Numbered from the stretch's first letter, positions 5,741 through 25,539 are shown. The stretch is 25,539 nucleotides of DNA from a virus (IMGVR_UViG_3300040801_005248:1-25539), one strand, 5' to 3'. Translations and numbers: made by a program. The notes: generated by a model not told the origin, from the sequence alone.

Positions 5741-5843
5741 GTAGTAATGTTCAGTAGTAGGGGGGTGGTCAGTAATCAGATGTCAGTAATCAGATGTCAG
5801 TAATCAGACTACCGACTACTGACTACCGACTACTGACCGCCCC
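5741..5843 (-). repeat. Heptanucleotide tandem-repeat spacer forming a long imperfect hairpin (R1)
   Basis: The left arm (plus strand) is a GTCAGTAATCAGAT 14-mer (two heptamers), about three copies. The right arm is about 2.5 copies of CTACCGACTACTGA. The arms pair over 5762-5843 with 2x2 internal loops every 14 nt. Confidence 0.85.
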
Positions 5844-5911
5844 TTTTTCGACCAGGGCGACGCCCCAAAAATCGCGCCCAGGACGTGCGTATGCGTGCGT
5901 GCGCACGGTTT

Positions 5912-7255: not shown

Positions 7256-7269
7256 TCCTTTCGTGGTGG
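7256..7269 (-). promoter_or_regulatory. Leader motif CCACCACGAAAGGA (copy 6, minus strand)
   Basis: Exact reverse complement TCCTTTCGTGGTGG, 7 nt upstream of ATG 7248. Confidence 0.6.
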
Positions 7270-7274
7270 AAGTT

Positions 7275-7339
7275 TGATGTCAGTGGTCAGTAGTCAGTAG
7301 TCAGATATCCGATTACTGGCTACTGACTACTGACTGCTA
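7275..7339 (-). repeat. Heptanucleotide tandem-repeat spacer forming a ~26-bp hairpin (R2)
   Basis: 7279-7304 pairs with 7309-7334 (22 WC pairs, 3 G.T, 1 mismatch on the plus strand). The repeat starts at the TAG stop of gene 7337-7600. Confidence 0.85.
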
Positions 7340-7600
7340 TCGAATAATATACGCCACCTCCCCCGGCTTTAGATAATTCCGCGAGTGAGCGTAAACAACG
7401 GGCCGACCCTGGTCATCAGTCAGTATCGGCATCTGATCTGGTTCCGTACAGCCGATGTAATAGGGTGCGTACCGTTTGTCCGTCTGCAAACTCACAAATT
7501 GCGGTGCCGGTTGGAAGCGCCGCCGCACCGGGGGCGTGTAGCCCTGCGTCTTGAATGTTTCTCGTTTCGTTACCCTGCGTCCACTGATCGCCTGTCCCAT
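7337..7600 (-). CDS. Hypothetical protein (87 aa)
   Basis: AGGAGG lies 8 nt upstream of ATG 7600. Confidence 0.7.
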   Translation of the reverse strand: MGQAISGRRVTKRETFKTQGYTPPVRRRFQPAPQFVSLQTDKRYAPYYIGCTEPDQMPILTDDQGRPVVYAHSRNYLKPGEVAYIIR

Positions 7601-9070: not shown

Positions 9071-9126
9071 TTAAAAACCTCAAATCATTTTGATAGATGG
9101 ATTCTGTAATGTACTTCTATTTAAAG

Positions 9127-9231
9127 CATGTGTACCGTACATAAGCGGCTTATGTACCGTACATAAGGAAAATTTTACTTATGACAAGTCGCTTATGTAC
9201 CGTACATAAGCGGGATATGTACCGTACATAT
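9127..9231. repeat. Array of four palindromic iterons/operators (core TGTACCGTACA) plus one degenerate copy
   Basis: Centres lie at 9136, 9158, 9201 and 9223 (spacings 22/43/22 bp). Copies 2 and 3 are the 19-bp palindrome CTTATGTAC-C-GTACATAAG. The AT-rich stretch 9071-9126 adjoins the array. Confidence 0.85.
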
Positions 9232-9240
9232 TGAAATTAG

Positions 9241-10098
9241 TCATTCAGCCAGGTATCCCAGGTCTGAAAATGAGGCCTGTTGCCACTCCTGATGATTGAC
9301 ATTGTGAATCGTCAACCAGCGCCGATGTTCGGCTTGAAGCCGCCGGCTAAAATAACTGACCTCAATTTCGGTGAGCAAAGGCAAACTTTCCAAAACCTGA
9401 AACGTGTAAGCCGTTTTGCGCCCGGCCCCGGTGGTCATCGTGCGCACAATACGCCGCTCCGAAAGCTCCTGGAGCCAGCCCTTAATGCCAGCCCGTTGAT
9501 GGGGCGGGTTGCCCCAGGCCCGCCGGCCCAACAATTTGTACCGCTGTCCTTTGGCTGTAATATCAGCCAAAAGAGCAATTGCGGGCCACTTGCCCGTCAG
9601 GTTTTGGGCCTCATAGCCAAATGATTTCAGGGTGAGCCACAGCCCAAACGCCTCGCCTAGCACCGGTTGCCAGAAACGCACCGCATACACCGAGGGCGCA
9701 ACAAAGGCCCGCAACGGGTCAGTCTGTACCAGTTCCGTTTTGAAGCGCCCAGGGCCAGGGCCATCCGGGTCAGGCTGAGGCCAAACGCTCATTTGAGGTA
9801 TTTTCTGTGCTATCGGGTCTGATGGTGGTGGCCGCCCCACCACGTAATCAATATGGCCTATCGCCGCATCTTGGAGTAAGGCCGCCCGCTTGATGGTGTC
9901 ATCCAGCCGGTTACTTAACCATTGTTGAGCAAACGTATTTTTGACGTAAACTGTGAGAATGCCCGTCTCTTTGTCCAGCACCGCCCCGCTATCCTGAAAC
10001 CACGTATCAAACGTGGATTTGGTCATCTGTAACTTTAATTGGTTTAATGTATCGGCCCAGGCGGGCCAGGCCGGAAGGGGATTGACTGAGGGTGACAA
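9241..10098 (-). CDS. Replication-initiator-like protein with DnaA N-terminal-like domain (285 aa)
   Basis: WADTLNQLKLQMTKSTFDTWFQDSGAVL..LTVYVKNTFAQQWLSNRLDDTIKRA follows the DnaA_N pattern. TTG start with AAAGGAG 6 nt upstream. The iterons lie immediately 3' of the gene. Confidence 0.55.
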   Translation of the reverse strand: MSPSVNPLPAWPAWADTLNQLKLQMTKSTFDTWFQDSGAVLDKETGILTVYVKNTFAQQWLSNRLDDTIKRAALLQDAAIGHIDYVVGRPPPSDPIAQKIPQMSVWPQPDPDGPGPGRFKTELVQTDPLRAFVAPSVYAVRFWQPVLGEAFGLWLTLKSFGYEAQNLTGKWPAIALLADITAKGQRYKLLGRRAWGNPPHQRAGIKGWLQELSERRIVRTMTTGAGRKTAYTFQVLESLPLLTEIEVSYFSRRLQAEHRRWLTIHNVNHQEWQQASFSDLGYLAE

Positions 10099-10144: not shown

Positions 10145-11041
10145 ATGAAACTTACCACCACGATTGAAGAATTTTTGATGGAAGCCAGGCTGAGCTTGGC
10201 CCCGGCCACGGTCAGCAAATACCAATCACATCTGCTTGGTTTTGCCGCCCACGTCGGCGACATCACCCTAAGCGACATCACCGCCCGCCACATCCGCACA
10301 TGGCGCGGAAGTTTGACGGATGCCCTATCACCCTATACAATCCACCAACGACAGCGAACATTACGTCGTTTTTTTAATTGGTGCCTTGACGAAGGCTATG
10401 TCAGCGCATCACCGGTGCGAACGGTGGCTTTCCCACCACTCCCCAAAGACCACCCGCCCCGCGCCATCTCAGCTTATGATTTACACCTAATGTTTCAGGC
10501 CGCTTTCAAGAGTGGACCCCGAGACTACGCCCTGGTTCGCTTCTTGGCCGATACCGGTTGCCGCATAGGCGGCCTGATCACGGCCAGAATAAGCGACTTG
10601 GACACGCAAAACAGAACCATTCTATTAACAGAAAAGGGGAATAAAACCCGCCCGGCCTGGTTTGGGAGTGAAACGGCCAACGCCTTACGCGCCTGGCTGG
10701 TCATTCGGCCCGACCACCCTTCAAACCGATTGTTTCTCAGTCAGCGGCCTGGCAGAGCGCCGGAGCCAATGACTACATCTGGCCCACGCCAGTTATTGAA
10801 ACGCCTGGCAGGGGAGATCGGAATTACCGGGCCGCATAATCCGCACGCCTTCCGCCACGCTTTCGCCCGGCGGATGCTGGCCAACGGCATGGACATCAGC
10901 GACTTAAGTCGCCTCATGGGGCATAGCTCCATCCAGGTCACGGCGAAGCATTACTTATGCTGGACAGCCGCCGAGTTGGGCCAGAAACACGCTCAATTTA
11001 ACTCGCTGGATGAAATAAAAATCACAACGAGGGATTTGTAG
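10145..11041 (+). CDS. int: Tyrosine recombinase / phage integrase (298 aa)
   Basis: Box I is ADTGCRIGGL. Then come HAFRHAFA (HxxR) and GHSSIQVTAKHY (H...Y nucleophile). The N-terminus is a SAM-like core-binding domain. Confidence 0.9.
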   Translation: MKLTTTIEEFLMEARLSLAPATVSKYQSHLLGFAAHVGDITLSDITARHIRTWRGSLTDALSPYTIHQRQRTLRRFFNWCLDEGYVSASPVRTVAFPPLPKDHPPRAISAYDLHLMFQAAFKSGPRDYALVRFLADTGCRIGGLITARISDLDTQNRTILLTEKGNKTRPAWFGSETANALRAWLVIRPDHPSNRLFLSQRPGRAPEPMTTSGPRQLLKRLAGEIGITGPHNPHAFRHAFARRMLANGMDISDLSRLMGHSSIQVTAKHYLCWTAAELGQKHAQFNSLDEIKITTRDL

Positions 11042-11063: not shown

Positions 11064-11111
11064 AAGGGACTCATAAGCCCTTGGTCGTGTGTTCAAATCA
11101 CACCGTCGCCA
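11064..11111 (+). other. attP core: 3' half of a tRNA with CAU anticodon (Met or Ile2)
   Basis: Anticodon loop CTCATAA (11070-11076), variable region TGGTC, T-arm GTGTG-TTCAAAT-CACAC, 3' acceptor CGTCGCC plus discriminator A. No matching 5' acceptor or D-arm lies upstream. Confidence 0.7.
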
Positions 11112-11233
11112 TTCCCTCAAAAACAGGCGGTTTAAGGGGGGAGGGTGGGGCAAGTTTTGTTGCTTGCCCTCTGGTAGCTGGTTACTACGATTAAAATGTA
11201 TTCAGTTGTTAAGGTGCATTTTCAGGGGACAGC

Positions 11234-11269
11234 AAAGGCCCGATCACTGACACTGGTCGGGCCTTTTTT
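11234..11269. terminator. Intrinsic terminator shared by int (plus) and xis (minus)
   Basis: AAAGGCCCGA...TCGGGCCTTT stem followed by T6 on the plus strand. On the minus strand it directly follows the xis stop codon. Confidence 0.7.
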
Positions 11270-11471
11270 ATTCGTCTGTTCCCTGATTGCGCTTTTGGCG
11301 CAGGGCTTCAATATCTTCGGCAGGAATGAGCCAGGCCGAAGTCAGTTTGTCGGGGTCCACTTTAAAAGCATGGGGAAAATCGCCCCGGTGTAACCACAAA
11401 TGAATCGTGGTCTTGGCTACGCCAAACTCCATTGCGGCCTGTTCTACATTGTAGGGTCTATCGGTTGACAT
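11268..11471 (-). CDS. xis: Excisionase / MerR-type HTH DNA-binding protein (67 aa)
   Basis: YNVEQAAMEFGVAKTTIHLWLHRGDFP fits the excisionase-family HTH. Position is next to int/attP. Confidence 0.65.
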   Translation of the reverse strand: MSTDRPYNVEQAAMEFGVAKTTIHLWLHRGDFPHAFKVDPDKLTSAWLIPAEDIEALRQKRNQGTDE

Positions 11472-11493
11472 TATCGCCTGCCAAGTGTAAAGT
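11465..11493 (+). promoter_or_regulatory. Sigma70-like promoter for the moron cassette
   Basis: TTGACA (11465-11470), a 17-nt spacer, then TAAAGT (11488-11493). The -35 element overlaps the xis start codon. Confidence 0.5.
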
Positions 11494-11597
11494 TATACAG
11501 TAGATGGGCAGTGTACAGATTATTCGAAAATCTGTCAAGCCCGCTCTAAAATTTAGAAATGATAGTTATACCGCTTCGACGGGAAAGGAACTCTAAA

Positions 11598-14275: not shown

Positions 14276-14290
14276 AGTCACCTCAATTGA

Positions 14291-14340
14291 GAATTAAGAA
14301 TTAAGAATTAAGAATTTTTGACCCCTGACCCCTGAAACTC
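14291..14340 (-). repeat. In-register heptamer repeats, no hairpin (R3)
   Basis: Plus strand: (GAATTAA)x3, GAATTTTT, (GACCCCT)x2, GAAACTC. Sense strand: (AGGGGTC)x2 then (TTCTTAA)x3. Confidence 0.85.
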
Positions 14341-14346
14341 GTTTTG

Positions 14347-14535
14347 ACCTCCCCCCCCACCCCCTCTACCACCACAGACCCCCCACCCCCCTTGCAGGAG
14401 TTGGAAAGCTGTAAACAAACCAGAAACTTCAAGCTAAACCGCAACATCCAGCGAAAGAACAAGGACACACAGCCAAGACACAGCCAAGAGACAGCCAAGA
14501 GACAGCCAAGAGACAAGGCAAAGACAGGCCAGACA
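14347..14535 (-). repeat. Composite intergenic element, copy A
   Basis: Block 1 (14347-14399) matches 21338-21390 at 51/53. Block 2 (14417-14485) matches 21409-21477 at 68/69. Tail of 11-mer repeats (AGAGACAGCCA)x3. Confidence 0.9.
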
Positions 14536-17502: not shown

Positions 17503-17572
17503 TAGAAATTAGAAATTAGACGTCAGATGTCAGCAGTCAGATTACCGACTACCGACTACTGACTACTGCTTA
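17503..17572 (-). repeat. Ten in-register heptamers including a hairpin (R6)
   Basis: Sense strand: TAAGCAG TAGTCAG TAGTCGG TAGTCGG TAATCTG ACTGCTG ACATCTG ACGTCTA ATTTCTA ATTTCTA. The first TAA is the capsid gene stop. 17522-17540 pairs with 17545-17563. Confidence 0.85.
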
Positions 17573-19591
17573 CGCTACATTATTTTTGTGAATGCCCCGA
17601 TAGCCATCCACGCCCACGGCAAATTCATCACGGACTTTAATCGGGAGCTTATCGTTGGTGAACATCAGGCCGCCCAATTCACTTTGAGCCGTGAAGATCT
17701 CCGGAAGCGGGTGTTCCCGACCGCTGGCATCCTGACCATAGGTCATATGGATGACCGGGAAAAGCATCGGGTCAACGATGGCGGCCCAATCCGTGGCGTC
17801 AGTCCAATCAGGCACGGCCACCGGCACCGGACGAGGGTCAGCCGGGCCACGGTCATTGTAATTGGCGTCGTGAGCCGTCGGCACGGCATCGCTGTAGCCA
17901 AAATTATCCAGGGCTTGCCGATACAGATCGCCCGGCACCAGACAGTACTTAGGCCAGAAGCCCAGGCGTTTACCGCTTCCAATTTCAGTCTGCTTGAAAA
18001 CCGCCAACGAAGCCGCATTCCAAGCGGTCGTATCCGAACCCAAAGCCGTCGTCAACAAGTTGTTATGGTCGGCGTGGAACAAGGCCGTACTGTCCTGGCT
18101 TAAGGTCGGGCCAACGCCGCTATTGCTGGTAAAAATGGCACTGACCGCCGCCGAACGAGTACGCACCGCCGCCACCGCCAGAGAGCGAGGCACAACCTGA
18201 AGGCGCTGGATGTCAGAGTTCAAAATCATATTGCGGGTGATGGACAGATAGCCGCCTTTTTTGTCCCAGCTGTCGCTCTCTTTGGCGTCGTCAATCTCAA
18301 GCTCGGTGTAGGCCGCCCCATCGCTCACATCGGGCAAATCCCCTACCCCCCCAAAAGAAATCCACTGCATGTCGTGTCTACTACCATCGTTGGGTTCCAG
18401 CTTGGTAATCAACTCAAACCAGCGATACAGCTGTAAGTAGGTCCAGTGCTGAATAATGACCTTATTCATAGCGTTGACCGCCATCCCCGGCAACGTCACC
18501 GGCGAGGCCCCCGCCAACTCAACCCGGCTGGCATCAAACACACCGTGAAACGCGACATCACCAGAGGCGGCCACATAAATATCACGGAAACTGCGCCGGT
18601 TAGGCGGAGGCGTATCCGCCCCATCCACCCCAAAAATCCAATCAACATCATTTTGCGCCCGGTCAAGACCCGTTACTTGGCCCTCCAACCGGGTTCCTGT
18701 CTCCCGTTCCCGGGGAGCATGGCCCATCCCGGTCACGGCAGAGCCTTGGCCCAGCCGTTCCAGGGCCGATTGCAGGTCATCAATCTTTTGCTCAAGCCGA
18801 GCCGTGGCCTGGCTATCCGAGTCCAGATCAACAACCTGCGACTCGCCAGACAGAGCCGCCTCAATCAGCCTCGCAATGCGCCGCTGATAGGCTTTCTGGT
18901 CACCGTCCCGTTGCAATTGCTCATCGAAAACCTCTACAAGCTCATTCAGCAAGCCCTCATTGCTGGGTTCGTGACCTTCCTCATAAGTCACTTTCGTTTC
19001 TTCAGTACCACTCATAGCAAATTCCTCCATCAATAATTTATTAAGGCTCAATTGAGCACGAGCCATAGATAACATTTCCAACAAACGACCATCAGCCGCC
19101 GGGCCAAAAACCACATCGCAACTAATCACCTTCTGAATTTCAGTCAGCCGCCTGATACCCTCCCCATCTTCTTCAAACGCTCCGTAAAAATGGAGACTAA
19201 AGCCGATGTCGGGCACGGCCGCGCCAGTCTCCGCATCTTCGACCAAATCGTCCAGCAGTTCAGCCAGCCACGCCAGATCAGAGCGACTATACAAACTCAG
19301 CTTACCCGTTACGTCCCCGTCAGCATAAGTCACGGCAGAGAATACCCCCGCCGTTTTTTCAACTGAAGGCGACTGGAGCCAGCCGGGATGATCCACCAAA
19401 CAGCCCGCCCCCTCGAACAAGCCCCGTTCAACCGCATCCTGTAACACCGGAGCCGGAATAAATATATCCCCCGGCGTACCGTCCGCAAACACCACCCGCC
19501 CCGCTTTAATCAAGCGTACCAAATACTGCCGCCGTTTGCCGGTGGCCGCCAGCGATATCTCACTCTGGAGTCTCATTACTTCCACTGTCAC
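17570..19591 (-). CDS. Major capsid protein (HK97-fold-like C-terminal half) fused to a long N-terminal protease/scaffold-like region (673 aa)
   Basis: Position is directly after portal. The middle is a charged coiled-coil (EEGHEPSNEGLLNELVEVFDEQLQRDGDQKAYQRRIARLIEAAL). The C-terminal ~330 aa show capsid-like patterning (KKGGYLSITRNMILNSDIQ..LFHADHNNL..YCLVPGDLY). The start is uncertain (GTG 19585 has the best AGGAGG spacing). Confidence 0.6.
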   Translation of the reverse strand: MTVEVMRLQSEISLAATGKRRQYLVRLIKAGRVVFADGTPGDIFIPAPVLQDAVERGLFEGAGCLVDHPGWLQSPSVEKTAGVFSAVTYADGDVTGKLSLYSRSDLAWLAELLDDLVEDAETGAAVPDIGFSLHFYGAFEEDGEGIRRLTEIQKVISCDVVFGPAADGRLLEMLSMARAQLSLNKLLMEEFAMSGTEETKVTYEEGHEPSNEGLLNELVEVFDEQLQRDGDQKAYQRRIARLIEAALSGESQVVDLDSDSQATARLEQKIDDLQSALERLGQGSAVTGMGHAPRERETGTRLEGQVTGLDRAQNDVDWIFGVDGADTPPPNRRSFRDIYVAASGDVAFHGVFDASRVELAGASPVTLPGMAVNAMNKVIIQHWTYLQLYRWFELITKLEPNDGSRHDMQWISFGGVGDLPDVSDGAAYTELEIDDAKESDSWDKKGGYLSITRNMILNSDIQRLQVVPRSLAVAAVRTRSAAVSAIFTSNSGVGPTLSQDSTALFHADHNNLLTTALGSDTTAWNAASLAVFKQTEIGSGKRLGFWPKYCLVPGDLYRQALDNFGYSDAVPTAHDANYNDRGPADPRPVPVAVPDWTDATDWAAIVDPMLFPVIHMTYGQDASGREHPLPEIFTAQSELGGLMFTNDKLPIKVRDEFAVGVDGYRGIHKNNVA

Positions 19592-21304: not shown

Positions 21305-21337
21305 AAGCAACCTACTAACTACCGACTACTGATTTTA

Positions 21338-21498
21338 ACCTCCCCCCCCACCCCCTCTACCACCACAGAACCCCCGCCCCCCTTGCAGGAAACCAGAAAC
21401 CAGAACTAAAACCAGAAACTTCAAGCTAAACCGCAACATCCAGCGAAGGAACAAGGACACACAGCCAAGACACAGCCGACAGAGCCGACACAGCCAGG
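21338..21498 (-). repeat. Composite intergenic element, copy B
   Basis: Same two conserved blocks as copy A, in the same orientation, directly after the TerL stop (TAG 21499-21501). Confidence 0.9.
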
Positions 21499-23489: not shown

Positions 23490-23948
23490 TCACAAATCCC
23501 ACTCAGACCCAAGCTCAGAATTGACCTCATCAAACAACGTCCCCAACGCCCCCAGCAGTCCATCAGCCGCATCCCCGCTTAAAGCCCGTTGGTCACGCAA
23601 TAGTCTCCCGATTCGGCTGGCGTTTTGGCCGTGGAGCGTCAGCAGTTTAATCATATCGGCCAGCTCTACGCCGCCCTGACTGCTCTTCTCCTGAATATAG
23701 GCACTCAACTGAGCCTGCCGATTGAAAACATCCTCCAACACATCGCCGATATCGTTCAATTCCATAGTTGGAGCCGAGTAATAGCCGTGCTTTTCGGCGT
23801 TGCTATTGCCCTCCGGTGCGCCAACCAGTGCGCCGCCATGAGAAGCGCATCGAGGCGGGCTTGAGCCACGCATAGACCAAGCCTTGCATTGTCGGCCATC
23901 ATTCGGATACCGATATTCGCATTTCCGAGAAACGTAAGCGGAGCACAT
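23490..23948 (-). CDS. Terminase small subunit-like protein (152 aa)
   Basis: N-terminal 4-Cys module plus HGGALVGAPEGNSNAEKHGYYS (the GN.NA.KHG.Y motif common in small terminases). First large gene of the late operon, upstream of terL. Confidence 0.45.
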   Translation of the reverse strand: MCSAYVSRKCEYRYPNDGRQCKAWSMRGSSPPRCASHGGALVGAPEGNSNAEKHGYYSAPTMELNDIGDVLEDVFNRQAQLSAYIQEKSSQGGVELADMIKLLTLHGQNASRIGRLLRDQRALSGDAADGLLGALGTLFDEVNSELGSEWDL

Positions 23949-24024
23949 AGGTATACATCTCCAACGCCAACCAATAGGTGAGCAAAAGCACGGCTAAAAA
24001 AATCCCTGTGGCTGGCTGTTTCAT
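23899..24024 (-). CDS. Possible 41-aa TM peptide at the head of the late operon
   Basis: GGGAG lies 5 nt upstream of ATG 24024, directly after the terminator U-run. Sequence MKQPATGIFLAVLLLTYWLAL... It overlaps the TerS-like start by 50 nt in another frame. Confidence 0.3.
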   Translation of the reverse strand: MKQPATGIFLAVLLLTYWLALEMYTYVLRLRFSEMRISVSE

Positions 24025-24034
24025 TGATACTCCC

Positions 24035-24075
24035 AAAAAAAAAGGGGGCGACATCGTAAAACCGACGCCGCCCCC
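24035..24075 (-). terminator. Strong intrinsic terminator immediately upstream of the late operon
   Basis: Minus-strand RNA: GGGGGCGGCGUCG-GUUUUA-CGAUGUCGCCCCC (13 bp including 2 G.U) followed by U9. On the plus strand the two G.U positions are A.C mismatches. Confidence 0.8.
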
Positions 24076-24384
24076 ACTGTAGAGGATAAACACACAGTAA
24101 AATTATCGCACAAATGTTCGCTAAGTCAACCTCTTGTGCAACTTGACCTATAAAACCAGCTCTTCCGGAGGCTTCAGTGGCCAGATTCATTGTGCAGGTT
24201 GCCATAGATTGAATCCGGTATTTTTTTATACAGTGAATCGTCCCCCAAGTCGCCGCCTTCTCCAAACCATAAAAGCGGGATGCCCTTGCTGGCTACGTGG
24301 CGGGCGGTCAGAGGGGGGCTGTTTTTTTCCGAGGCTTCACCTTTGGCCGAGGGTGGATGCCTTTGGCGCGGGCTTGTGCCCGGC

Positions 24385-24412
24385 GTGGATGCGGCAAAAA
24401 ACGCCGCTCCAC
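24385..24412 (+). other. A-loop hairpin a (GTGGA-t-GCGGC AAAAAAC GCCGC TCCAC)
   Basis: 10 bp with one bulge and a 7-nt A-rich loop. Confidence 0.6.
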
Positions 24413-24468
24413 CACGCCTAGAAGCTACCAGCACCCAGCACCTGCGCCGAGTTGTGCCCCGGCGCTCA

Positions 24469-24485
24469 GGCCGAAAAACACGGCC
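24469..24485 (+). other. A-loop hairpin b (GGCCG AAAAACA CGGCC)
   Basis: 5-bp perfect stem and 7-nt A-rich loop. A GCGCCG/CGGCGC hairpin (24444-24465) lies just upstream. Confidence 0.6.
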
Positions 24486-24533
24486 TCAACGCCGGAGCGA
24501 AGCCTATCAATGGCCGAGGGTGGGCGGCATACG

Positions 24534-24550
24534 CTGGCAAAAACAGCCAG
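24534..24550 (+). other. A-loop hairpin c (CTGGC AAAAACA GCCAG)
   Basis: 5-bp perfect stem with a loop identical to hairpin b. Confidence 0.6.
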
Positions 24551-24620
24551 ACGCAAGCCGCAGGGGAGTAGCTTCGCCCTTCCGGCAGGCTTTGCCCATC
24601 TCGACCTCGGTTCAGTTTAG

Positions 24621-24714
24621 TTTTTTTTGGCGGGCGGGGCGGTAACATCCCCAGCCCCAACTCCCTTAACCCGAATCGCCTTACAGACCGCGCCTAACCG
24701 CCCGCCAAAAAAAA
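24621..24714. other. Long-range perfect 17-bp helix I (T8GGCGGGCGG / CCGCCCGCCA8)
   Basis: 24621-24637 pairs with 24698-24714, all Watson-Crick. 4-5 further pairs follow after a TAA bulge. Confidence 0.75.
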
Positions 24715-24715
24715 C

Positions 24716-24777
24716 GCAGGCAAGCAAAAGCCTTGGCTAGATAAAAAAAAGCCTCCGCCCGGCTTTTGCTTGCCTGC
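24716..24777. other. Perfect 17-bp helix II (GCAGGCAAGCAAAAGCC / GGCTTTTGCTTGCCTGC)
   Basis: 24716-24732 pairs with 24761-24777. The 28-nt loop contains A8. It starts 1 nt after helix I ends. Confidence 0.75.
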
Positions 24778-24897
24778 ATCCGTCAAAAACTCCGCTCCTC
24801 CCCTCCCCTTTTTTTTGTGCAAGTTCCCGGAGGGATGCCGCACTTTTCTTGTCTGGCAATTTCATTTGCAGAACAACCGAGTCTGCACTTGTGGGCC

Positions 24898-24931
24898 GCA
24901 ATTTTTTAAGCACGTTAGCTTAAAAAATTGC
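24898..24931. promoter_or_regulatory. 14-bp perfect inverted repeat, operator candidate
   Basis: GCAATTTTTTAAGC-acgtta-GCTTAAAAAATTGC, 38 bp upstream of the -35 of the candidate early promoter. A second palindrome TTTTGCC-AA-GGCAAAA lies at 24950-24965. Confidence 0.55.
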
Positions 24932-24968
24932 TTGTTGTGCCATAGAAACTTTTGCCAAGGCAAAACCA

Positions 24969-24997
24969 TTGCCAGCCTGCGAAAAAGCGCGGCTAAT
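24969..24997 (+). promoter_or_regulatory. Candidate sigma70-like rightward early promoter
   Basis: TTGCCA (24969-24974), a 17-nt spacer, then GCTAAT (24992-24997), 61 nt upstream of ATG 25058. Confidence 0.4.
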
Positions 24998-25057
24998 TCA
25001 CTTTTTAAAAACAAAGTCGGCTTTTGCCGCCACCACCATCATTTTAAGGAGTTTACC

Positions 25058-25309
25058 ATGCTACACCCACAAAATTTTCGTCAAGTCTCAGGCTCTGCCG
25101 TCGGCCACCGCGCCCAGCGCTGGCACGTGGGCCGCTCGTCTCGCTCATTCACCGGGCACGTAGTCCGGGCCCTTTTCACCAACCACGCCCATGCCGCCGC
25201 TTTTGCCCGCTCCGCCTCCGCCCGCCTAGGGCGCTCGGTTTCCATCCGTCGTTACAAAGGCGGCTGGCTTGTGTCTGTGCCCGTCCAGGCTCGCAAGGTG
25301 GTGTCATAA
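25058..25309 (+). CDS. Arg-rich basic small protein (83 aa)
   Basis: AAGGAG lies 5 nt upstream of ATG 25058. 12 Arg in 83 aa. The C-terminal region reads AAAFARSASARLGRSVSIRRYKGGWLVSVP. The long upstream ORF extension from 24770 has no support. Confidence 0.65.
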   Translation: MLHPQNFRQVSGSAVGHRAQRWHVGRSSRSFTGHVVRALFTNHAHAAAFARSASARLGRSVSIRRYKGGWLVSVPVQARKVVS

Positions 25310-25539
25310 TGCTCATCGGTGTTACTGGTTCTCGCCGTTTCCAGCCTCGTCCCGTCGTTGGCGCTGTCCTGCGTGCGCTCCAGCCCTCGTCCGTGTTCGT
25401 TGGCTGCGCCCGTGGCGCAGATAAAGCCGTTCGCCAAGCCTTTCCCTCGGCTCGCGTGTTTCGCGCCGCTGGCCCCCTGCCCCATCAGCTTGTAGCGCGC
25501 TCCGTATCACTGGTTCATGCCGTGGCCGCTGGCTCTGGC
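25309..25539 (+). CDS. DprA/SLOG-like Rossmann-fold protein, 5' part (continues at 118-393)
   Basis: ATG 25309 overlaps the upstream TAA (TAATG). MLIGVTGSRRF...VGCARGADKAVRQAF. It is in frame with ORF 34-393 across the repeat. Confidence 0.5.
   Translation, partial: MLIGVTGSRRFQPRPVVGAVLRALQPSSVFVGCARGADKAVRQAFPSARVFRAAGPLPHQLVARSVSLVHAVAAGSG
25423..25539. repeat. Terminal direct repeat, identical to 1-117
   Basis: Same comparison. This is either an assembler overlap of a circular molecule or a physical terminal redundancy. Confidence 0.97.

Follow-up and report, generated by a model that had tools for sequence, protein, structure and literature searches.

Two perfect inverted repeats, one of 18 bp and the other of 17 bp, abut each other in the largest non-coding region of a small temperate phage genome. 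The structure is real and statistically striking, and the second of its two helices (helix II) is best read as an ordinary, large-looped transcription terminator that takes its place in a family-wide layout. This reading is built on the structures themselves, a terminator signature confined to one strand, and a habit of the family of placing terminators upstream of TerS on the same strand as that gene.

The window, i.e., the whole 25,539-nucleotide stretch of DNA analyzed here, is the complete circular genome (~25.4 kb) of a small, uncultured temperate phage: an identical 117 bases at both of its termini make the contig a circular assembly of 25,422 bp. The integrase gene (10145-11041) is followed, directly after its stop codon, by the 3′ half of a tRNA-Met(CAT)-like sequence (~11068-11112), which is the probable attP core; a scan for tRNAs and tmRNAs found none. 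Beside this half-tRNA lies an HTH_17/excisionase-like gene (11268-11471, minus strand), and consensus promoters stand back-to-back nearby at 11465-11538. The gene for a DnaA_N-domain initiator (9241-10098) is adjoined by an array of a palindromic 22-nt unit (GCATATGTACCGTACATAAGCG, 4.8 copies, 9126-9236), which is likely to be the replication origin; a relative, L021, has an analogous CTATGTCCCGGACATAG array next to its own DnaA_N gene. The packaging and head operon runs on the minus strand and comprises genes for a small TM ORF, a TerS-like protein, TerL, the portal and a protease-capsid fusion. The small TM ORF (23899-24024, minus strand, read from about 24022) starts MKQPATGIFLAVLLLTYWLALEMYTYVLRLRF... 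and overlaps the start of TerS; many relatives have an ORF of the same kind in the same position. The TerS assignment (23948-23490, minus strand) comes from weak PHROG matches (E about 2e-4), and the TerL (23055-21499, minus strand) is divergent.

To the right of the helices, a plus-strand operon starts at 25059 with an 83-aa ORF, preceded by an AAGGAG ribosome-binding site and coupled to a 168-aa ORF (ORF168) that crosses the circular junction. The codon usage of ORF168 is atypical for the genome; despite this, its 529 homologues, one with a weak DprA-like match, identify it as a real gene. The plus-strand genes at this place (25059-25539 + 1-393) are extremely A-poor, with an AT skew down to -0.86 and 65-72% GC, and both of those right of the helices score as non-coding by the codon usage of the genome; JGI called in their place a 77-aa ORF in antisense (25252-25485). 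The product of the 83-aa ORF, a very basic protein, has no homologue. The helices lie between the two divergent operons, in a ~1-kb non-coding region (24094-25058) that is the genome's largest and adjoins TerS. All ORFs in 24100-25058, including a 42-aa one called by JGI and a 32-aa one spanning helix II, have coding scores of at most 0.08, against 0.10-0.35 for real genes, and are devoid of protein similarity.

An earlier note, made from the sequence alone, had described two abutting perfect helices far beyond chance expectation, and this was borne out in nearly every particular. As recovered by a repeat finder, helix I is 18 bp long, one more than had been stated: its perfect arms (24620-24637 / 24698-24715, on both strands) enclose a 60-nt insert and, past the TAA bulge that the note had pointed out, pair for 4 bp more (24638-24641 with 24691-24694). 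Helix II (24716-24732 / 24761-24777) has 17 perfect pairs and a 28-nt loop containing the A8 that the note had remarked on (24743-24750); its first base is the base directly after the end of helix I, and the two-helix element measures 158 nt in all. The perfect arms contain no G.U pair. Together they are the two longest perfect inverted repeats of the genome with a spacer of up to 120 nt. In 60 block-shuffled genomes no arm was ever longer than 12 nt, and arms of at least 12 nt, observed nine times in the real sequence, occurred with a mean of 0.12. The predicted folds of either strand are dominated by both helices, with energies of -38.6 (minus strand) and -35.0 kcal/mol (plus strand) for helix II (z -5.8 and -6.3) and, in the same order, of -46.0 and -37.7 kcal/mol for helix I (z -3.8 and -4.6). 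An assembly artefact is excluded for helix II and for the 3′ arm of helix I, both of which are reproduced with 100% identity by two contigs assembled independently from other samples (L133 and L134); the 5′ arm of helix I was seen in this contig alone. The polypyrimidine run that the note had placed after the helices is also there (24790-24816, plus strand), ending in T8; on the minus strand it is a purine run preceded by A8. We rejected this T8 run as a terminator, as no hairpin precedes it.

The two strands differ sharply in what follows helix II. On the minus strand a single G separates the stem from a U8 tract (24707-24714, A8 on the plus strand), whereas the plus strand after the stem reads AUCCGUCA / AUCCGUCAAAAA. 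Ten of the 17 base pairs of the stem are G-C, and on the minus strand alone it grows to 20 pairs through U.G, A-U and G.U pairs that reach into the U run. A relaxed terminator scan of 23949-25060 returned hits on the minus strand only, namely helix II with its U8 and the late terminator described below, and none on the plus strand; the earlier note was right to take the strand running from 24800 to 24000 as the relevant one. Hairpins of the same build (12-15 bp, mostly perfect stems, T8/T9) recur at other terminator-like sites of the genome (3783-3816, 11958-11993 and 24035-24075). Intrinsic terminators usually have loops of 3-8 nt; the 28-nt loop of helix II exceeds the short loop by which they are recognized and, like its perfect 17-bp stem, lies at the extreme of their usual range. 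Loops of 13-27 nt are common among the predicted terminators of the relatives. In position, too, helix II has a counterpart: it lies 768-829 nt upstream of TerS, and the TerS gene of a relative (L022) is preceded, at 766 nt, by a strong terminator. A small inner hairpin with a U8 (24726-24753) was considered as a first terminator and discarded, being unstable.

Hence, we tentatively propose that helix II and the adjoining G+U8 act as an intrinsic, factor-independent terminator on the late-gene strand, a plausible identification that falls somewhat short of an even bet. Such a terminator would halt polymerase entering leftward from the AT-rich control region on the right, ahead of the SOS-box late promoter and the packaging and head operon, and would thereby serve as an insulator; alternatively, helix II and the U8 could form the 3′ end of a short leftward transcript. 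In either role we infer that the minus strand is transcribed here and that transcription terminates at the U8 of helix II. A terminator that shields the operon of a mobile element has a precedent in T1 of Tn916 (PMC11658703). The weak point of this reading is that a search of the minus strand upstream of helix II turned up no promoter-like site, and that the rightward genes are plus-strand ones, so that a transcript in need of termination is hypothetical. The stretch 24893-24864 (GACTCGGTTGTTCTGCAAAT) resembles a decayed version of the family promoter, as a matter of resemblance only. Other facts sit less easily with the terminator reading: perfect arms lacking G.U pairs are equally expected of a DNA-level site or a recent palindrome, the reading does not account for helix I, which makes up half of the structure, and there is no related sequence in which conservation or covariation could bear it out. 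A 32-aa ORF (MQASKSRAEAFFYLAKAFACLRFFWRAVRRGL, 24681-24779, minus strand), with GGAG 10 nt upstream, crosses helix II and its U8 and ends in the insert of helix I; with its coding score of 0.03 it is probably a by-product of the palindromes. Were it translated, the terminator would be uncoupled, as in pyrBI-type attenuation.

Read along the minus strand, the region has the following order. A zone of 45% GC with operator-like palindromes (25058-24778) leads into helix II and its G+U8; then come helix I, the rest of a GC-rich island and a zone of 44.5% GC with the late promoter; and last the late terminator, with the small TM ORF and its ribosome-binding site behind it. The only recognizable late promoter (TTGACT-16-TG-GATAAT, 24129-24102, minus strand) follows the helices on the late strand and precedes the late terminator, and a GAACATTTGTGC box (GAAC-N4-GTGC, 24108-24119, minus strand) sits between its hexamers. 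The late terminator (24075-24035, minus strand), placed between this promoter and the small TM ORF and TerS, has a 13-bp stem with two G.U pairs, formed on the minus strand only, and a U9 tract. To the right of the helices, an AT-rich, perfect 14-bp palindrome (GCAATTTTTTAAGC N6 GCTTAAAAAATTGC, 24898-24931, both strands) is, judging from its sequence, operator-like or possibly a weak plus-strand terminator, and a candidate plus-strand promoter (24969-24997) lies downstream of it.

Several structured or repeated elements occur elsewhere in the intergenic DNA of this genome. A second non-coding stretch of about 600 nt (394-1001) contains a perfect 13-bp hairpin (926-954) followed by a U-rich run just ahead of the plus-strand gene at 1002, and start contexts of the form CCACCACGAAAGGAA recur at 971, 1290 and 3164. 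A dispersed family of intergenic elements (5757-5849, 7268-7346, 17504-17582 and 21312-21332) consists of repeated GTCAGTA heptamers followed by inverted TACTGAC/GACTACC repeats, with no U run after them; one of these forms a perfect 15-bp hairpin (7286-7334). Further, an intergenic module of about 155 nt is duplicated at 14337-14491 and 21328-21483 with 90-92% identity; it is C-rich on the plus strand, carries ACAGCCAAGAG tandem repeats, and lies upstream of minus-strand genes starting at 14281 and 21258, perhaps serving as a repeated internal promoter or leader.

The TerS-like protein has 279 metagenomic relatives, the best of them 61% identical and several from Anaerolineae bins, through which we gathered about 130 loci. 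A blastn and tblastx comparison of the region against these loci found no similarity apart from an identical fragment (L020); in local alignment the closest relative, L001, reached at best a score of 30 against a shuffle maximum of 27, a marginal value, and the aligned stretch fell on an imperfect hairpin resembling helix I. Likewise, there was no DNA match in 50,697 phage records; a scan of IMG/VR with the arm of helix II gave single-copy chance matches only, and one with the gapped helix I pattern gave none. Cultured relatives were not found by tblastn with TerS, and the capsid gave distant matches only. Rfam 15 yielded zero matches at the gathering score and, at an E-value threshold, only generic hairpin matches to miRNA models. 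Because no related sequence exists, the helices themselves cannot be compared; what can be compared is the layout in which they sit.

In that layout, one or two hairpins or terminators stand between the promoters and the small TM ORF and TerS. Terminators predicted by a relaxed scan within 1.2 kb upstream of TerS are on the TerS-sense strand at 16 loci and on the antisense strand at 2. In the relatives, near-consensus promoters carry a box of the form AGAACA-N2-3-TGT(G/T)C, which is the LexA motif GAAC-N4-GTTC of Gram-positive bacteria (PMC3323433). In two compact relatives, L065 and L022, the elements alternate as terminator, LexA-box promoter, terminator, LexA-box promoter and terminator. 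This architecture suggests, from sequence comparison, that the structural genes may be under direct SOS control and then face leader terminators that would need an antitermination step. A LexA (Cheo) box of the form GAAC-N4-GT(G/T)C, between or just after the hexamers, was seen in the window and in L022, L065, L058, L051, L078, L087, L093, L119 and L076, and relatives encode a LexA_DNA_bind protein of 70-75 aa after TerL. As a separate observation, an abutting hairpin pair opens the late leader in two subfamilies (L051, L063, L064, L089, L125, L078 and L084; L052, L090, L129 and L094): the first hairpin has a stem of 12-14 bp closing an insert of 42-110 nt, and the loop of the second is short. 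The stems are conserved in sequence, with G.U and compensatory changes between members (L051 vs L125), and the inserts vary. We regard this pair as a candidate cis-regulatory RNA family.

Helix I presents a different picture. On either strand it reads U8 and GGCGGGCGG at one side and CCGCCCGCC and A8 at the other, which is the order of a bidirectional terminator reversed, and it scored as a terminator on neither strand. The U8 at 24707-24714 doubles as the U-tract of the terminator and, followed by GGCGGGCGG, as the opening 8 nt of the 5′ arm of helix I; for this reason the formation of helix I is confined to read-through RNA or single-stranded DNA. It begins a hairpin-dense, non-coding island of ~430 nt (24280-24715, both strands) with 62.6% GC between flanks of 44-45%, fold z-scores of -3.9 to -6.1, three hairpins with A5-6 loops (on the plus strand) and GGCCGAGGGTGG direct repeats. 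The 3′ arm of helix I also has an alternative partner: 24298-24322 is 80% complementary over 25 nt to 24683-24707 (both strands), and this pairing closes a multi-hairpin domain of ~360 nt. In the minimum-energy fold of 24290-24716 the long-range pairing displaces helix I on both strands, and in longer folds helix I prevails over it; in these models helix I is thus one of two mutually exclusive closures of the island. We dropped a strand call from G.U asymmetry, some hairpins favoring the minus strand and others the plus strand, and gave no weight to a G-quadruplex motif in the insert of helix I (24649-24672, minus strand), there being eight on that strand genome-wide.

The closest relative has an imperfect analogue of helix I. 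In L001 a T-run and G-rich arm, a 69-nt insert, and a C-rich arm and A-run follow one another in that order with 76% complementarity, and long-insert hairpins lie upstream of the late promoters of L058 (70 nt), L119 (68 nt) and L063 (65 nt). The arms of the L119 hairpin are themselves operator-like palindromes, and in its close relative L100 one of them is disrupted with no compensating change. Helix I may act as a structural switch, may mark a site of processing or one used at the DNA level, or may have no function at all. The closest likeness for the pair as a whole is to compound terminators of the lambda tI/sib type, whose terminator hairpin is taken up into a larger fold of the read-through RNA: here too a U8 lies within 1 nt of the stem on one strand only, and read-through RNA would stack helix I on helix II, reusing the U tract. 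Unlike in those terminators, helix I is a separate, abutting helix and not an extension of the stem, and no upstream gene or promoter is evident. RNase III processing at this place, as at sib, is pure speculation.

Among the alternatives to a terminator, we consider unlikely, and yet worth weighing, a DNA-level cos or pac signal in which the helices, the A/T tracts and the GGCGGGCGG motifs are recognized by the terminase encoded just downstream. Perfect arms would suit a DNA site, and the place is apt, being the largest non-coding region and next to TerS. In lambda, cosQ, cosN and cosB lie upstream of the small terminase gene, and the present region shares with the lambda cos region its non-coding DNA at that place, its repeated motifs and its A/T tracts. 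GGCGGGCGG occurs six times in the genome, with three exact and two near copies round the insert of helix I (three on the plus strand, then two on the minus strand), and the GGCCGAGGGTGG direct repeats, by their resemblance to terminase-binding repeats, are candidates for such sites. In contrast to lambda, the distance to TerS is 670-830 bp as against about 200 bp, a promoter and a terminator intervene, and the symmetry, with its 28- and 60-nt spacers, is unlike that of cosN. Eight of the genome's 16 A/T runs of at least 7 nt fall in 23996-24816. The earlier note had expected the element to form cruciform or bent A-tract DNA. Two features argue against this: with 28 and 60 nt between the arms, cruciform extrusion is disfavored and improbable here, and the A/T tracts, at spacings of 86, 36 and 66 bp, none a multiple of 10.5, are not helically phased. 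The long contigs of many relatives end 400-900 nt upstream of TerS, as would be expected of physical genome ends, but these ends coincide with tandem repeats, and that of L119 is not repeated elsewhere. Contigs from sister samples break at 24680/24696 and 248/279 (16 and 31 nt apart), in stretches of 59-74% GC, which fits coverage dropout; a further end at 24472 also lies in GC-rich sequence and coincides with none of these. The clustering of contig ends was rejected as evidence for cos, as tandem repeats and GC-rich dropout explain it at least as well. Moreover, nothing comparable to this extra DNA lies ahead of TerS in the compact relatives L065 and L022, and TerL is too divergent for its packaging mode to be predicted.

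Rather improbable, in our estimate, is a lack of any selected function, with the palindromes made or perfected by strand-switch replication errors, or the region acquired as a small foreign insert between 24298-24322 and 24683-24707. Arms with neither G.U pairs nor mismatches are what such errors would leave, and a 62.6% GC island with imperfect terminal inverted repeats between 45% GC flanks, with no detectable similarity even to the closest relative (61% TerS identity), looks foreign; the uncompensated loss in L100 of one arm of the long hairpin of L119 points the same way. Speaking against an accident are the abutment of perfect repeats of 17 and 18 bp, one of them with a well-placed U8, the identical sequence in three samples, and the recurrence of long-insert hairpins upstream of the late promoters of L001, L058, L119 and L063; further, there is neither a target-site duplication nor a second copy in the genome. 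The same lack of a target-site duplication, at either helix and at the 24298-24707 island, and of any copy in the genome or IMG/VR led us to reject a MITE. An integron attC site was set aside on inspection of the sequence, the arms having neither RYYYAAC/GTTRRRY cores nor extrahelical bases, and an invertible segment on account of spacers that are too short.

Quite doubtful is a gene for a small leftward regulatory RNA, with a purine-rich 5′ part (24816-24780) and a 3′ end formed by helix II and its U8. The architecture, a single-stranded 5′ region followed by a terminator hairpin and a long U tail, is the standard one for such RNAs, and the location in a divergent control region next to operator-like palindromes is suitable. 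This reading nevertheless meets with the same want of a promoter, the nascent 5′ part carries no structure signal (z +1.4), and no target was found: a 13/14 match of the loop to 25214-25227 is of the kind expected by chance in GC-rich DNA.

Very unlikely is a processive antitermination RNA like put or canT, in which helices II and I, perhaps with the whole 430-nt island, would overcome the late terminator. The earlier note had likened the helices to the put elements of HK022 and placed them in a leader upstream of the late terminator. The put element is a double hairpin of ~65 nt found just after the promoter at PL and PR (PMC8632103). Of the likeness, two adjacent stem-loops one nucleotide apart, on the strand running to the terminator and upstream of it, do remain. 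The size and the promoter position do not agree: the present element is 158 nt long with perfect stems of 17-18 bp, no preceding promoter was found, and one of its stems carries the U-tract of a terminator. As for the leader, transcripts from the late promoter (24129-24102) start past the helices, between them and the terminator, and so do not contain them, and any transcript that did contain them would first meet helix II and its U8, itself a strong terminator. Tn916 offers a further parallel as a mobile element with an operon-shielding terminator and a multi-hairpin region of several hundred nucleotides upstream of terminators; canT, of 452 nt, is close in size to the hairpin-dense island, and experiment has placed the Tn916 promoter, canT and T1 on one transcript in that order (PMC11658703). 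The phage region differs in putting the putative terminator first, with no visible promoter and no similarity in sequence. Two hairpins of the island gain G.U pairs on the minus strand, and the presence of terminators in the late leader of all family members argues that some antitermination device must exist; the helices themselves match nothing in Rfam and are not conserved in relatives. A boxB/N-like system, built on the three A-loop hairpins and the basic 83-aa first gene product, was dropped: there is neither a boxA nor a promoter, and the stems are extended and not of 5 bp.

It is an equally long shot that the two helices and the ~430-nt island form a bistable, cis-acting late-strand RNA that decides read-through past the SOS-box promoter region and the late terminator. 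Its two states would be helix I and the 24298-24322 / 24683-24707 closure, and it would act on polymerase that has passed helix II. If so, it would represent a new family of put- or canT-like processive antitermination RNAs in a phage group that is probably non-proteobacterial. Lastly, a replication origin, which the earlier note had also entertained, a site of single-strand initiation or an attachment site is extremely improbable and already largely refuted: hairpins, A/T tracts and non-coding DNA are present, but the iterons lie at 9126-9236 beside the DnaA_N gene, as in L021, attP lies at ~11068-11112 by the integrase, and no rolling-circle Rep gene was found in the genome.

Helix I, which reuses the U-tract and competes with the long-range pairing, would matter only if it proved to be a switch or a packaging signal, and for now it is a curiosity. 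If helix II is a terminator, its value lies mainly in charting the transcription of a group of small temperate phages that had not been described before. The design of this group, a structural operon behind Gram-positive-type SOS boxes and stacked terminators, implies direct control by LexA together with an antitermination step.
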